NCBI RefSeq assembly: GCF_002854065.1
Contig: NZ_CP024147.1
DNA length: 64,000 nucleotides
From: Escherichia coli
GTDB lineage: Bacteria > Pseudomonadota > Gammaproteobacteria > Enterobacterales > Enterobacteriaceae
Strand: one strand, 5' to 3'
The translations under genes were made by a program, and so were the position numbers. Below are positions 3,882 to 11,612 of the stretch, in pieces (within the stretch, counting starts at the first letter, position 1; each line of letters starts with the position of its first letter). The notes beneath the pieces are model-generated. The model saw only the letters and a program-made list of their open reading frames with translations, was not told the origin of the DNA and ran no database searches.

Positions 3882-4406
3882 ATGACACAACCTCTTTTTC
3901 TGATCGGGCCTCGGGGCTGTGGTAAAACAACGGTCGGAATGGCCCTTGCCGATTCGCTTAACCGTCGGTTTGTCGATACCGATCAGTGGTTGCAATCACA
4001 GCTCAATATGACGGTCGCGGAGATCGTCGAAAGGGAAGAGTGGGCGGGATTTCGCGCCAGAGAAACGGCGGCGCTGGAAGCGGTAACTGCGCCATCCACC
4101 GTTATCGCTACAGGCGGCGGCATTATTCTGACGGAATTTAATCGTCACTTCATGAAAAATAACGGGATCGTGGTTTATTTGTGTGCGCCAGTATCAGTCC
4201 TGGTTAACCGACTGCAAGCTGCACCGGAAGAAGATTTACGGCCAACCTTAACGGGAAAACCGCTGAGCGAAGAAGTTCAGGAAGTGCTGGAAGAACGCGA
4301 TGCGCTATATCGCGAAGTTGCGCATATTATCATCGACGCAACAAACGAACCCAGCCAGGTGATTTCTGAAATTCGCAGCGCCCTGGCACAGACGATCAAT
4401 TGTTGA
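3882..4406 (+). CDS. aroL: shikimate kinase II
   Basis: [26 protein letters not shown]... Walker A motif; 174 aa. Confidence 0.95.
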
Positions 4407-4446
4407 TTTTCGAGCGCCTATACTTAACGTTCATCCCGTGAAATAA

Positions 4447-4647
<201 letters not shown>

Positions 4648-4904
4648 CCGCATCAGACTGCTCGGAAGGGATTCTGAGTGCCACTACAAGGGATCTGCGT
4701 CACATTTTTCATAATTCATGTTTTTCAAATAATTAGAATATTAAACAATAACAATCCATTACTGGAATCATTTGGAATCTTTACATTATGCCGTGCACGT
4801 CTGCTGCTACGCTTTTTGTCATTTGTAGCACAAGTAAGTGTCAGCAGTGGTGCTTAACACTTGCCCGGTAATTAACGACGAAATAAAAGTAAGGTGGAAG
4901 AACA

Positions 4905-5582
4905 ATGAGTGCGTCGTTGGCGATCCTGACCATCGGCATTGTACCTATGCAGGAAGTTTTGCCGCTCCTGACAGAATACATTGACGAAGATAATATTTCC
5001 CATCATAGCCTGCTGGGGAAGTTAAGCCGCGAAGAAGTGATGGCGGAGTACGCGCCAGAAGCAGGCGAAGACACAATTCTCACATTATTAAATGACAACC
5101 ATCTGGCCCATGTTTCGCGTCGCAAAGTAGAGCGTGACCTGCAAGGTGTGGTTGAAGTGCTCGATAATCAGGGCTACGACGTCATTATATTAATGAGTAC
5201 GGCAAACATTAGTAGTATGACTGCGCGTAATACGATCTTTCTTGAGCCGTCGCGGATATTGCCACCGCTGGTTTCCTCTATTGTTGAAGATCATCAGGTG
5301 GGGGTTATCGTACCGGTTGAGGAGTTGCTGACCGTTCAGGCGCAAAAATGGCAAATTTTGCAGAAACCGCCGGTATTTTCATTGGGTAACCCCATTCATG
5401 ATTCAGAACAAAAAATCATTGATGCCGGGAAAGAATTACTGGCGAAAGGCGCAGATGTCATCATGCTGGATTGTTTGGGATTTAACCAGCGTCATCGCGA
5501 TTTACTGCAAAAACAGCTCGATGTTCCTGTCTTGCTCTCTAACGTATTGATTGCACGGTTGGCTGCGGAATTACTGGTGTAA
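4905..5582 (+). CDS. aroM: AroM family protein
   Basis: 225-aa [25 protein letters not shown]...; RBS AAGGTGGAAG. Confidence 0.9.
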
Positions 5583-5653
5583 TTTTGCGTGACAGCCAGC
5601 GCCTCTGGCCCCTATAGTGAAGTAGATGTTCAACTACCAGACAGGGCCAGTTT

Positions 5654-5938
5654 ATGCTTCAAAGTAATGAGTACTTTTCCGGCAAAGTGAAATCGATCGG
5701 CTTTTCCAGCAGCAGCACTGGTCGCGCCAGCGTGGGTGTTATGGTTGAAGGCGAATACACCTTCAGCACCGCTGAGCCGGAAGAAATGACGGTAATCAGT
5801 GGCGCGCTGAATGTGTTACTGCCTGACGCGACCGACTGGCAAGTGTATGAAGCCGGTTCGGTGTTTAATGTTCCCGGTCACAGTGAGTTTCATCTGCAAG
5901 TTGCCGAACCCACCTCTTATCTGTGCCGCTATCTGTAA
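5654..5938 (+). CDS. ppnP: pyrimidine/purine nucleoside phosphorylase PpnP (YaiE)
   Basis: 94-aa [17 protein letters not shown]... matches YaiE/PpnP. Confidence 0.9.
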
Positions 5939-6292
5939 TTCCTCGCCTTCCCCTTGAACGGGAGGGCATTTTTCTGAAATATCCTCTCTTTAACCCATAA
6001 TAATATTTCCTTTGCTGCGATTTTTTCAATTTCCGATATATTCATAATTCATCAAGGTTGATATAAATATCATTGAAGATTATGAATAGAATTAATATAT
6101 TGGTCATCTGTATGGTCGTATTTTTTATGACTGGCAATGCATGCGCCACAGAGTGGATCAGTAGCGAGGAGCTTATCACCTCTGACTTTCATCTTATGAC
6201 GGCAGATGAGCGCAACGTGGTTAAAGCGGCAACCGACGATAGTATGGAAGCTGCTTATATGCTAAAAGATAATATCCGCTGGTATTATCATA

Positions 6293-6301
6293 ATGGTGAC
6301 C
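6293..6301. repeat. 9-bp target site duplication (ATGGTGACC), left copy
   Basis: Identical 9-mer immediately flanks both IS1 ends. Confidence 0.85.
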
Positions 6302-6356
6302 GGTGATGCTGCCAACTTACTGATTTAGTGTATGATGGTGTTTTTGAGGTGCTCCA

Positions 6357-6632
6357 GTGGCTTCTGTTTCTATCAGCTGTCCCTCCTGTTCAGCTACTGA
6401 CGGGGTGGTGCGTAACGGCAAAAGCACTGCCGGACATCAGCGCTATCTCTGCTCTCACTGCCGTAAAACATGGCAACTGCAGTTCACTTACACCGCTTCT
6501 CAACCCGGTACGCACCAGAAAATCATTGATATGGCCATGAATGGCGTTGGATGCCGGGCAACCGCCCGCATTATGGGCGTTGGCCTCAACACGATTTTCC
6601 GCCATTTAAAAAACTCAGGCCGCAGTCGGTAA
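6357..6632 (+). CDS. insA: IS1 InsA (transposition inhibitor / N-terminal part of transposase)
   Basis: [46 protein letters not shown]... ; GTG start. Confidence 0.95.
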
Positions 6633-7054
6633 CCTCGCGCATACAGCCGGGCAGTGACGTCATCGTCTGCGCGGAAATGGACGAACAGTGGGGATACGTC
6701 GGGGCTAAATCGCGCCAGCGCTGGCTGTTTTACGCGTATGACAGGCTCCGGAAGACGGTTGTTGCGCACGTATTCGGTGAACGCACTATGGCGACGCTGG
6801 GGCGTCTTATGAGCCTGCTGTCACCCTTTGACGTGGTGATATGGATGACGGATGGCTGGCCGCTGTATGAATCCCGCCTGAAGGGAAAGCTGCACGTAAT
6901 CAGCAAGCGATATACGCAGCGAATTGAGCGGCATAACCTGAATCTGAGGCAGCACCTGGCACGGCTGGGACGGAAGTCGCTGTCGTTCTCAAAATCGGTG
7001 GAGCTGCATGACAAAGTCATCGGGCATTATCTGAACATAAAACACTATCAATAA
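6551..7054 (+). CDS. insB: IS1 InsB' frame (expressed as InsAB' fusion by programmed -1 frameshift at the A6C motif near 6606-6615)
   Basis: ...[26 protein letters not shown]...HYLNIKHYQ* ; TTTAAAAAAC slippery run in insA/insB overlap. Confidence 0.9.
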
Positions 7055-7069
7055 GTTGGAGTCATTACC

Positions 7070-7078
7070 ATGGTGACC
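7070..7078. repeat. 9-bp target site duplication (ATGGTGACC), right copy
   Basis: Identical to 6293-6301. Confidence 0.85.
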
Positions 7079-9134
7079 TATCATTACCCGCTAACTTCAG
7101 CAATCAAAATAAACTGGTGGTGAACGGTAATTTAACGATTTCCGGCGATTATGATGATTATCTGTCAGGTAATGGTCATCTGATTGTATTAGGTAATGTT
7201 ATTGTCGATAACTTTATTAATCATGATTTCGCGTATGTCAAAGGACAGATGACCGCGAAAGGTTTAGTTTATGCTGATTACAATGATCATAACTTTGAAG
7301 TGATGAAGGGAATTAGTGCGCGAGGCATTATTGTTTCCGATAAAGCAACGCAATTTGAAGTCATTAAAGCTGAATTTTATATCAATGAAGATGGAAGTGG
7401 TGAAGGATATAACTGGGATGAGAATATTCAAAAAGCCTATTCACTGGTGACTGCCGATCTTTATGATCACACTGAAATCGAAACCGATAACATTTCCAAT
7501 GCGTATCCTGACTATGATAGCGTCGCAGACAACATCGTTCAGGGTTTACCGCTTTTTCGAGATAAAGCCGCTCCTGAAATTAATGAGAAATTAAAATGGA
7601 TTGAAACGGGGAAACTCGATAATTTCCCAGCGAATAAAATAAAGCATCAAGATCCACTGGTGGCACGTTTGCTGACTCATACAGAGAGTTTATCACCCGC
7701 CGTTATGCTGCAACTGTTACAGCACCCCGATGACCAGACGCGTGAATCGATGGCGCAGTCCTGGCCCGCTCAACAGATGCATTTGCTTACCGATGAATTA
7801 ATTAAAGATGAGGCTGTTGCCAGAGGGCTGGTTAAAAACAGTAATATTTCCGCCGATGTGAATAAAAAATTAATGTCTGTACCCGTCGAGAGCGTACAGC
7901 TGGAGCAGGCCAGACAGGATAATCTTTCTCCAGATATTGTTGCGTCGTTAAGTCATAGCCCCTTTCTCAGTGTACGCAAGACATTACTCAGCCATTACGA
8001 TTACGCCTGGCTGGTTCCGACTGCAGTGGCCGATGAGTTGATAAATAACGAAGACCCGGAGTTACGTGAAAGAATTACCGGAGCAGATTTAACCGCACAA
8101 CAAGCAGTGATGTTGAGTAAAGATAAATCACTGAAAGTTCGTGAAGCATTAGCCCGGACGCTTACTGAATTAAAAATTACCCAACTGTCAGCAACCCTGC
8201 GTACAGAGGATATTGAACGTATCGCAGAACAAATGTATCTGGATAATAAAGAAAATAAAAATATCGTAAAGGCGTTATTGATAGCGTTGCCGGAGATGCG
8301 TCAACTGTCTCTGGCAAAAGAAGATGTGCACAATTTGCGCGAAGGTGCGCGTTATCTGACATCGAAGGACGTGATTAGTTATCTATTGACTCAGCATGAT
8401 GTTCCCACCGTCTGGGATGAGCTGGCACGCGATAAATTATTGCCGCTGGAATATAAGAAACAGTTATGGCAACGCACATTAAATTTAATGATGAGCAAAC
8501 GGCAAGAAGATCAAGAGCAAGCCTACGAAGTACAGCTGGCGCTGATTGATAATGGTGTTGTTGACGAAGAGATGTTAAATAATGCCATTGATTTACTGGT
8601 TGATTTACCCGCTGAATACCGCTATCGAATGCGTAACCAATTATTTGATAATAAAGATTTATCTTCCGGAATTATCAACAAACTCGATCAACAGTATCGC
8701 TTCAACTCTGACTGGGCGCTGTCTGTTGTCAGTATGAAAAATAGCACCCGTAGGCAAAGTGAAAGAGGATTACACCGCTGGAACCGTGAGGATAGCGATA
8801 TTTTTGCAGAACTGGCGACGATAAAAGATAAATCAGATGATGAATGGTGGCGTGCATTGCTGCAAAGTCGCAATGATCATTTGCGCCAAACGGCATTACG
8901 CAACGCACATACCCCGGCGTCGTTGTTAACGACATTGACTGAGCCTCAGGATCGGTCGCTGGCTATTAATAATCCACAGCTGGCTGCCGATGTGAAAACG
9001 GCGTGGTTAAAAGAGGATCCATCATTACTCTTATTTGTCGAACAACCCGATCTTTCGCTGTTACGTGATTTAGTGAAAACCGGGGCAACGCGGAAAATTT
9101 GCAGTGAAGCGCGTCACCGGCTTGAGGAAAAACA

Positions 9135-9590
9135 ATGACACAACGTCCATGGAGCAAGTTACAGCGGGAGATCTATGACTTACTGACGCCAACGATCAAC
9201 CTGCAAATTCACTGTACCCGTTATCCCATGCGCAGCCAAAATGGTGGAAGCACCGATTTACCGCGTTATTGGATCACGTTGGATAAAAACGTGATCTGGG
9301 ATTACCCGAAAGACTTTATTGCAGGTAACGGTGGAGTGCGTAATTTTCACGGTGAAACTTGCTGGTATCCTTACCTGACGGATATTTGTTCAATTTCTGA
9401 TTTATTGCGTGAATATATTGACACCCCAAAAGCGGAGTTGTTAACAAAACAATTTACCAGCGATAAATGGGGGTTAGTGAATATTCTGCGTGCTGCTGAC
9501 AGGCGAATAGGGATGAGGCGATTAGATCAGTTACGGCGTAAAACGCATAATATTGCTGCGCTAAAAATTATTGCCCGCCGTAGCGAATAA
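9135..9590 (+). CDS. hypothetical protein, 151 aa, translationally coupled to upstream repeat-protein gene
   Basis: ATG overlaps upstream stop (ATGA at 9135-9138); no motif recognised; [17 protein letters not shown]... Confidence 0.6.
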
Positions 9591-9595
9591 TTATA

Positions 9596-9655
9596 TGCCT
9601 GGTGTGGCTTCGTACGCCGGATAAGACGCGGCAGGCGTCGCATCCGGCATTAAAG
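9596..9655. repeat. REP (repetitive extragenic palindrome) element
   Basis: gccggataagacgcggcaggcgtcgcatccggc, typical REP palindrome in convergent intergenic gap. Confidence 0.5.
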
Positions 9656-9667
9656 GAAAATCAGCAA

Positions 9668-10579
9668 TTAACGTTGTGCTTCGCCACCTAATCCTTCAAT
9701 CAGGTTTTGAATTAACGCTGCCAGTTCACCAGTCATCAGGATGAAATCGGCATCAAAATGCTGGGCGAAATCTTCACGGTCGATATCTTCGTTTTGATCG
9801 CGCAGCTCGTCGCAGAACTTCAGACGCTTGAGCGAACCATCGTCGCACATCACAAACTGAATGCGCTGCTGCCAGTCGAGCGCCAGTTTAGTCACCACTT
9901 TTCCGGCTTCAATGTGATTGGTGATCTCTTCGCTGGTCAGATCTTGTTTCTTCGCGCGGATCACGCCGCCATCTTCCAGCAACGATTTCAGCTCGGCTTC
10001 ATCAAGCAGCTGGAAGCCCTGTGCCGCACTACCGGAGCGAACCCATTCGGTCAACGTCAGTTCAATCGGGTTTTCCATGCTCAATGGTACAACCGGTAAC
10101 GACCCCAGGCTTTTACGCAGCAGTGCCAGCGTATCTTCCGCTTTTTTGGCACTGGCGCAGTCCACCATAATCAAACCGTTAACCGTGTCGATCCACATCA
10201 TTGTCTGGCTAAAACGGCTGAAAGCACGCGGCAACAGAGAGTGCAGCACTTCGTCTTTCAGCGAATCTTTTTCGGTTTTCTTCAGCTTACGCGCCTGTTC
10301 CGCTTCCAGTTTGGCGATTTTCGCTTCCAGCGCCTGCTTAATCACCGGAGACGGGAGGATTTTTTCTTCTTTGCGCGCGCAGATAACAATTTGACCATTG
10401 GCAACGTGCGTTAACGCATCGCTGTGCGATCCCATCGGAGGAACCCAGCCCATCTTCGCCATGTCCTGGCTGCCGCATGGGGTAAATGCCATCGAGGCTA
10501 GCTGTTTTTCCATCTCTTCTGCACGCAGCGAAATCTCGCGGCTAAGACGGTAAACCATTAAATTTTTGAACCACAGCAT
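9668..10579 (-). CDS. rdgC: recombination-associated protein RdgC
   Basis: [28 protein letters not shown]... 303 aa; start trimmed from ORF track to ATG at 10577-10579. Confidence 0.95.
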
Positions 10580-10703
10580 GATAATTTCCACGGCCTTGTC
10601 GTTAAATTTAGCGGGCATGATAACGAATTGTCGGCGGCCTTGCATTGCCAATCCGGTTGTCCGTCTCTACGCTATTGATATTGAAAAAAATAAGGAGAGT
10701 ACC

Positions 10704-11612
10704 GTGCGTATAGGTATCGATTTAGGCGGCACCAAAACTGAAGTGATTGCACTGGGCGATGCAGGGGAGCAGTTGTACCGCCATCGTCTGCCCACGCCGC
10801 GTGATGATTACCGGCAGACTATTGAAACGATCGCCACGTTGGTTGATATGGCGGAGCAGGCGACGGGGCAGCGCGGAACGGTAGGTATGGGCATTCCTGG
10901 CTCAATTTCGCCTTACACCGGTGTGGTGAAGAATGCCAATTCAACCTGGCTCAACGGTCAGCCATTCGATAAAGACTTAAGCGCGAGGTTGCAGCGGGAA
11001 GTGCGGCTGGCAAATGACGCCAACTGTCTGGCGGTTTCAGAAGCAGTAGATGGCGCGGCAGCGGGAGCGCAAACGGTATTTGCCGTGATTATCGGCACGG
11101 GATGCGGCGCGGGCGTGGCATTCAATGGGCGGGCGCATATCGGCGGCAATGGCACGGCAGGTGAGTGGGGACACAATCCGCTACCGTGGATGGACGAAGA
11201 CGAACTGCGTTATCGCGAGGAAGTCCCTTGTTATTGCGGTAAACAAGGTTGTATTGAAACCTTTATTTCGGGCACGGGATTCGCGACGGATTATCGTCGT
11301 TTGAGCGGACATGCGCTGAAAGGCAGTGAAATTATCCGCCTGGTTGAAGAAAACGATCCGGTAGCGGAACTGGCATTGCGTCGCTACGAGCTGCGGCTGG
11401 CAAAATCGCTGGCACATGTCGTGAATATTCTCGATCCGGATGTGATTGTCCTGGGGGGCGGGATGAGCAATGTAGACCGTTTATATCAAACGGTTCCGCA
11501 GTTGATTAAACAATTTGTCTTCGGCGGCGAATGTGAAACGCCGGTGCGTAAGGCGAAGCATGGTGATTCCAGCGGCGTACGCGGCGCTGCGTGGTTATGG
11601 CCACAAGAGTAA
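10704..11612 (+). CDS. mak: fructokinase / manno(fructo)kinase, ROK family
   Basis: GTG start at 10704 after [25 protein letters not shown]... ROK sugar kinase signature. Confidence 0.9.

Follow-up and report, generated by a model that had tools for sequence, protein, structure and literature searches.

The gap between ppnP and rdgC in Escherichia coli: very probably two independent accessory genes, one of them split by IS1

When the stop codon of one gene overlaps the start codon of the next, are the two genes a functional unit or only neighbours? The question is posed by a 64,000-nt stretch of Escherichia coli DNA (NCBI RefSeq assembly GCF_002854065.1, contig NZ_CP024147.1; hereafter the window), where the gap between ppnP and rdgC holds a large gene split by the insertion sequence IS1 and, sharing the tetranucleotide ATGA (9135-9138) with its end, an intact open reading frame (ORF) of 151 codons. 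A first-pass annotation had read the two as an uncharacterised module composed of a secreted repeat protein and a translationally coupled partner. Our analysis indicates instead, with high confidence, that they are two independent genes in a decaying locus.

The smaller gene encodes a full-length member of the SF0329 family (Pfam PF25753; NCBIfam NF049912), which is named after a Shigella flexneri locus tag, and the larger one belongs to a family of long, predicted exported proteins. The two families co-occur only in E. coli/Shigella-type sequences. Among the 80 metagenomic SF0329 loci most similar to the query, sampled from at least 306 in the metagenome scan, 78 lack a gene of the large family, the two exceptions being E. 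coli sequences; the gene is likewise absent from all 13 SF0329 contexts obtained by exact look-up and, seen from the other side, SF0329 is absent from 13 of the 15 genome loci of the large family. The pair was found nowhere outside Escherichia, and the claim of a two-gene module fell on this point: the two ORFs are not conserved together.

Within Escherichia, the two genes can be followed through intact, partial and deleted states. Strain 148 carries both intact, annotated in RefSeq as 'DUF2773 domain-containing protein' (759 aa) and 'SF0329 family protein', and 443 of 5426 complete E. coli genomes have both genes, each covered at 80% or more, so that the intact alleles for which the first-pass annotation had proposed a survey do exist. 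Of these genomes, 444 contain the 5' part of the large gene and 920 a full-length SF0329 gene; about 477 therefore retain SF0329 but no intact large gene. Strain CRE10 is an example: its large gene is wholly deleted and SF0329 lies directly behind the ppnP intergenic region, the left deletion junction being the same as in K-12. The opposite state is seen at the ppnP-rdgC site of E. whittamii and Escherichia sp. E1V33, where the large gene is intact (73% identical) and what follows it is ATGA with no more than the last ~60 nt of SF0329. For the large gene, a dN/dS ratio of 0.12 (E. coli against E. whittamii) or 0.19 (one cryptic-clade sequence against the other) indicates evolution under purifying selection and hence that this was a real gene. 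Both genes were thus already there in the ancestor of the genus Escherichia, and several different deletions have since removed them independently.

The same history accounts for two orphans of K-12, which, in line with the first-pass annotation, retains only remnants at this site: ykiA and ykiD are what deletions left of a larger ancestral locus. The former is a pseudogene fragment of the DUF2773 protein, namely a C-terminal 113-aa stump with the same promoter region 5' of it. The latter encodes a 27-aa protein, detected as an expressed small protein (PMC6001520), that consists of the first 11 and the last 16 residues of SF0329. It originated through an in-frame 372-nt deletion between the imperfect direct repeats AGTTAC(A/G)GCG, AGTTACAGCG and AGTTACGGCG, located in the window at 9157-9166 and 9529-9538 (K-12 side, L003 3825-3908). 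The deletion that removed SF0329 from E. whittamii and E1V33 is a different one, with nearly the same 3' endpoint.

Several features do speak for a module, whether it pairs a sensor with its effector or an exported toxin with an antidote in the cytoplasm. The ATGA overlap is present as the first-pass annotation described it, with a Shine-Dalgarno-like GAGGA 5' of the ATG at 9135; both genes are ancestral at the site; and, in E. coli, the large gene is found only where SF0329 is found (444 versus 443 genomes). Against this stand the separate distributions described above, the predicted location of the two proteins in different compartments and the lack of any toxin or enzymatic domain in the large protein. 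That E. whittamii and E1V33 lost SF0329 and yet keep the large gene intact and under purifying selection is incompatible with an essential antidote. Since either gene can persist by itself, also inside Escherichia, an obligate module and a toxin-antidote arrangement are ruled out; a type II toxin-antitoxin pair was rejected on the same grounds, each gene occurring intact without the other and the large protein being devoid of a toxin domain. Comparative genomics already largely refutes the module reading.

In the window itself, the large gene is a pseudogene, inactivated by IS1, because only a 74-aa stub can be made from it. The element (768 bp, plus strand, 6302-7069), of which the window has no second copy, has the expected size, imperfect terminal inverted repeats, the insA and insB' frames and a 9-bp target-site duplication, ATGGTGACC, with its left copy at 6293-6301 and its right copy at 7070-7078. 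IS1 interrupts codon 74 after its first base, in the conserved motif HNGDL, and separates a 5' fragment of 73 codons plus one base (6082-6301, plus strand), which starts with the signal-peptide-like N-terminus MNRINILVICMVVFFMTGNACA/TEW, from a 3' part (7079-9138, plus strand) that codes for the rest of a beta-helix, a linker and an LRV-type (leucine-rich-variant) alpha-solenoid. In agreement with the first-pass annotation, removing IS1 and one copy of the duplication in silico fuses 6073-6301 in frame with 7079-9138, giving 2289 nt without internal stops and 762 sense codons when counted from a TTG at 6073; the intact alleles in RefSeq begin at an ATG corresponding to 6082 and encode 759 aa. 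The restored ORF is about 98% identical to one of these, the O157-type protein WP_120795310, and one cluster of 759-aa proteins has 1878 member sequences. The window gene, WP_120795310 and K-12 YkiA are one and the same gene, of which the window copy is split by IS1.

The window's exact IS1 allele is rare, its right-hand junction being common to only one or two complete E. coli genomes. The same insertion, labelled IS1-like in RefSeq, is present in strains CUWW06 (L002 6483-8152, left junction) and 2018-05-2CC (L036 2700-3640). Each of them shares one IS1 junction with the window and has an additional deletion adjacent to IS1, one extending rightward and the other leftward, and the insertion apparently seeded further decay of the large gene.

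Both genes are already annotated in RefSeq and covered by Pfam or NCBIfam models (DUF2773, SF0329), and the locus as such is not new. The term 'uncharacterised' used in the first-pass annotation holds in the narrower sense that neither protein has a characterised function: our literature searches on SF0329, on DUF2773 and on the O157 and Shigella locus tags returned nothing relevant.

What kind of protein did IS1 destroy? Our reconstruction comprises a putative signal peptide, a right-handed beta-helix of about six turns (mature residues to ~180), a linker with a conserved P-x-F-R motif and an LRV-type alpha-solenoid, as seen in an AlphaFold2 (AF2) model with a pLDDT of 73. Three predictions of the first-pass annotation found support here. 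For the signal peptide, support is heuristic: the N-terminal segments MNR, INILVICMVVFFM and TGNACA/TEW include a strongly hydrophobic stretch (Kyte-Doolittle 10-residue maximum 3.5) before ACA/TEW, and a similar signal-peptide-like N-terminus is found, by the same heuristic, in 24 of 30 aligned family members. The beta-rich N-terminus corresponds to the beta-helix of the AF2 model. For the HEAT- or LRV-like C-terminus, the E. coli protein has no significant match to the Pfam LRV and HEAT models; the family profile, for its part, matches the LRV protein structure 1LRV (E = 7.6e-13), in line with the modelled alpha-solenoid. The only Pfam family on the protein is DUF2773 (PF10971; E = 1.5e-39), which covers the last 81 residues (679-759; model 1-81 of 81). 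The beta-helix module and most of the solenoid have no Pfam or NCBIfam model, and no catalytic or enzymatic family of either collection matches the protein.

A word-indexed search retrieved only six clusters of relatives, and an exhaustive profile search 280 representatives (E <= 1e-3), of which about 45 are full length (750-820 aa) and align end to end. By profile similarity, the E. coli protein is thus a member of a wider, predicted exported family, the N-terminal module of which Pfam does not cover. This module, with the motif HxGDLxIxG...LIVxGNLxIxGxYDDY...LIVLGD...GLVYxxYNDFxFEV, occurs in diverse settings: alone in proteins of 200-350 aa, duplicated (P0205), behind PARCEL surface-lipoprotein repeats (P0255), and at the head of LRV + TPR proteins of 1000-1200 aa without a signal peptide (P0202, P0219, P0249, P0274). 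In six actinobacterial loci (L021-L025 and L028, ~4300-6600; Streptomyces, Kitasatospora and Streptacidiphilus), the LRV and beta-helix parts are encoded by adjacent ORFs in different frames and in reverse order, the LRV gene coming first, and these are the only genes conserved among the loci. Such adjacency, of the Rosetta-stone type, supports the idea that the two halves of the large protein may work together. ORF calls at high-GC loci of the family are noisy. The called start of P0005, which is 49% identical to the E. coli protein, is too short, and an upstream ATG yields a signal-peptide-like N-terminus (MLKLNILTGCIIMIGLNSFAQSA). The P0005 gene stands alone on an enterobacterial contig (L013 7923-10241), with sprT/endA-like genes on one side and a gene for an MFS transporter and metK on the other.

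Known proteins resemble the large protein in part only. The LRV protein of Azotobacter vinelandii (1LRV; PF01816, PF25591) lacks both the signal peptide and the N-terminal beta-helix of the E. coli protein. Its likeness to the right-handed beta-helices of bactofilins and of the MinC C-terminus is generic for beta-helices; moreover, bactofilins are cytoplasmic whereas the large protein is predicted to be exported, and no Pfam bactofilin match was found in it. On balance, this architecture argues for an exported, non-enzymatic binding or scaffold protein, which would probably be periplasmic.

The second gene (9135-9590, plus strand) is intact. Its product has 151 aa, a net charge of +8 and no hydrophobic segment, and matches its family models over the full length (PF25753, E = 3.8e-22; NF049912, 94.6 bits with a cutoff of 60, profile positions 2-160 of 161). 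Relatives form 542 clusters and are spread over Bacteroidota, Bacillota, Pseudomonadota and Bradymonadia; proteins 55-68% identical to that of E. coli occur in Leminorella, Prevotellaceae, Bradymonadia, Paenibacillus, Zoogloeaceae and many metagenomes. The family alignment has 20 invariant positions and many near-invariant ones. Its structure model is confident, with basic C-terminal helices, and no solved structure resembles it. Foldseek against AFDB50 returned only the family itself and relatives labelled 'DUF4304', a name not mentioned in the literature that we searched. A sequence search of the PDB gave nothing below E = 0.15, and no second Pfam family was detected in 48 members.

In two Bacteroidales-like loci (L009 and L010), the SF0329 gene is one cassette of a co-directional array that follows a tyrosine recombinase and also contains an Imm10 gene and a DarG-like Macro gene. 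The L009 array comprises about 17 co-directional genes with a GC content of 29-39%, and intergenic repeats of the CTGCCGGACATTA type bracket the cassettes of arrays of this kind, SF0329 included. A recombinase 61-94% identical to that of L009 lies upstream on the same strand in 10 of the 80 metagenomic loci, and 26 of 44 non-Escherichia SF0329 loci of at least 5 kb have co-directional runs of at least seven genes. The recombinases of L009, L010 and the 10 metagenomic arrays belong to the Phage_integrase family. A Pfam census of 123 dereplicated array neighbours returned mainly SMI1_KNR4/SUKH-1, SUKH_5, SUKH_6, Imm9, Imm19, Macro and ankyrin families.

These properties agree with those of the rAID-1 orphan-immunity clusters of Bacteroidales, which combine a recombinase, low GC, co-directional genes and intergenic repeats (10.1101/471110). 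Homologues 58-62% identical to the E. coli protein resemble rAID-1 orphan immunity cassettes (Ross et al. 2019) in their low-GC, recombinase-led arrays, their repeated intergenic motifs and their neighbours of SUKH, Imm9, Imm10, Imm19, Macro and ankyrin type. L009-type homologues show three of the features that define rAID-1, namely at least two co-directional downstream genes, a GC content of at most 41% and repeated intergenic sequences. The window copy does not: it has no recombinase and is not part of such an array. In addition, the conservation of SF0329 greatly exceeds that of typical immunity genes. Other homologues are located in a Leminorella island with WGR/DUF4240 genes, in a Paenibacillus region with SUKH-3 and Macro genes, or at isolated chromosomal sites. 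The SF0329 family, itself uncharacterised, is now linked to orphan-immunity arrays.

The repeats of the L009 array deserve a separate remark. Between 4758 and 9986, a motif containing ...CGCTGCCGGACATTA... follows successive cassettes (for example at 5812-5842, 6403-6435, 7476-7508 and 9094-9122). The repeats are reminiscent of integron attC-like sites, and in one case the motif and the 3' end of the SF0329 cassette overlap.

The explanation that we favour is the following. The ppnP-rdgC gap holds a decaying accessory locus, already present in the Escherichia ancestor, whose two adjacent genes evolve and disappear independently. The first encoded a 759-aa protein, predicted to be Sec-exported and of binding or scaffold architecture, and is here killed by IS1; the second still encodes a small, basic, predicted cytoplasmic protein that elsewhere, most conspicuously in the orphan-immunity arrays of gut Bacteroidales, travels as a stand-alone mobile cassette. 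SF0329 may have been acquired horizontally and may act alone, as an immunity-type neutraliser of some interbacterial toxin. Taken as a whole, this explanation seems to us evenly poised between right and wrong. As to its last part, a stand-alone immunity-type protein is the most economical reading of SF0329, and the array context leads us to propose it tentatively, a little short of calling it probable. Should SF0329 prove to be a cross-phylum immunity factor, it would extend what is known of acquired defence between gut bacteria. The window itself is ordinary, an IS1-inactivated accessory gene beside an annotated neighbour, and what stays of interest is the SF0329 family and the beta-helix module for which no model exists.

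Several observations weigh against this explanation. No cognate toxin was found beside SF0329 homologues: the large adjacent ORFs that were checked in the metagenomic loci encode a TPR protein, DnaE and a membrane protein. The adjacent toxin gene that marks immunity genes of polymorphic toxin systems is missing, the upstream gene of E. coli having no toxin domain, and the immunity role is guilt by association because no toxin gene was found adjacent. The 80-locus metagenomic sample is biased to gut, and some SF0329 genes reside in phage-defence-like islands or at plain chromosomal sites. The polar residues S7, K8, Q10, Y14, Q24, R44, D110, D122 and R124 are invariant and, together with the 55-68% identity across phyla, amount to more conservation than an immunity protein of the binding type would usually show; the pattern would also suit an enzyme or a protein that binds nucleic acids. 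Because this conservation is unusual, SF0329 may instead have a defence-island function or a conserved enzymatic or nucleic-acid-binding activity. On the side of the large gene, the export of its product rests on a hydrophobicity heuristic. Finally, E. coli almost never has the large gene without SF0329, as the counts of 444 and 443 genomes show, and the ATGA overlap is conserved, so that some functional coupling of the two genes may exist inside Escherichia.

A more far-reaching reading, which we think unlikely, joins two proposals. The exported protein with its beta-helix and LRV parts would stand for a family of periplasmic scaffolds not recognised so far, whose halves are split into adjacent genes in actinobacteria, and SF0329 would be a new-fold, single-gene antidote to a very widespread interbacterial toxin. 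The antidote might even be an enzyme that reverses the action of the toxin, which would explain the 55-68% identity that extends from E. coli to gut Bacteroidales and Paenibacillus. On this reading, the chromosomal SF0329 gene of E. coli and Shigella would be an orphan immunity gene that shields enterobacteria from toxins of other gut phyla.

Of the rival explanations, the one that survives best, although we rate it as decidedly improbable, makes SF0329 a stand-alone protein of defence, or counter-defence, against phages or mobile elements, carried as cargo of defence islands. Three contexts are of this kind: a Bradymonadia copy beside genes for TerB_N/TerB_C, a BrxC/BrxD-like ATPase and a DEAD helicase (L007 1576-7356); a copy on a Photobacterium plasmid beside genes for a resolvase, a DEAD/DEAH helicase, a DUF1998 protein and an AAA ATPase (L032 10035-17801); and a copy on an island that bears an integrase, a type I restriction-like helicase and putAbiC (L034 10-5834). 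Strong conservation and basic C-terminal helices would also suit an activity directed at nucleic acids. However, no PADLOC-DB family matches either protein at E <= 1, SF0329 is almost absent from phages (none of 50,697 phage genome records; two of 2.9 million viral contigs), and its commonest recognisable context remains the array of SUKH, Imm, Macro and ankyrin genes behind a tyrosine recombinase. Membership of a known defence system was rejected on the PADLOC result, and a phage origin on the viral counts together with a PHROGs search that gave nothing significant. Plasmid cargo was rejected as well, with a single plasmid match outside E. coli.

A second rival is very unlikely in our view: the large exported protein would itself be a periplasmic immunity or decoy protein, and the Escherichia locus a miniature immunity island of two cassettes. 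It draws on an LRV-like cassette from an array of the kind that also holds SF0329 and on the helical-repeat proteins (ankyrin, TPR) among the array neighbours. Zhang et al. are also said to have described, in 2012, immunity proteins of HEAT type in polymorphic toxin systems. Against it, full-length members of the large family (750-820 aa) are conserved from end to end, none of those at the 15 genome loci lies in an array or beside a toxin, the sole neighbour conserved in actinobacteria encodes the architecture's other half, and the protein is far bigger than typical immunity proteins. The LRV-like cassette is an ORF of about 138 aa at 9465-9935 of L009, which matches the LRV region of the large-family profile (E = 3.6e-8).

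Least credible of all, in view of the distributions given above, is that the exported repeat protein and the 151-aa protein make up one translationally coupled module.

We return to the independent-genes reading to place the remaining features of the locus. The genes lie between aroL-yaiA-aroM-ppnP upstream and rdgC-mak-araJ downstream, in a segment with a GC content of 37-45%, against about 50% in the flanks. A consensus scan of the intergenic and promoter region of the large gene (5939-6081, plus strand) located a terminator-like hairpin of ppnP at 5945-5967 and a weak sigma-70-like match at 5974-6001; an Rfam scan of 5500-10800 returned no RNA family. The 5' intergenic stretch is retained in K-12 upstream of ykiA, whose promoter is activated by BglJ-RcsB (PMC3950696), and, by analogy, this activation may carry over to the window allele. 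The stop-start overlap is best explained by the usual tight packing of genes in an operon, here of two accessory genes that would share an AT-rich segment and a BglJ-RcsB-responsive promoter. At the other end, inverted-repeat finding detected a palindrome (GCCGGATAAGACGC / GCGTCGCATCCGGC; 9616-9648) between the SF0329 gene and the convergent rdgC. It resembles a repetitive extragenic palindromic (REP) element and is also kept in K-12 and E. whittamii.

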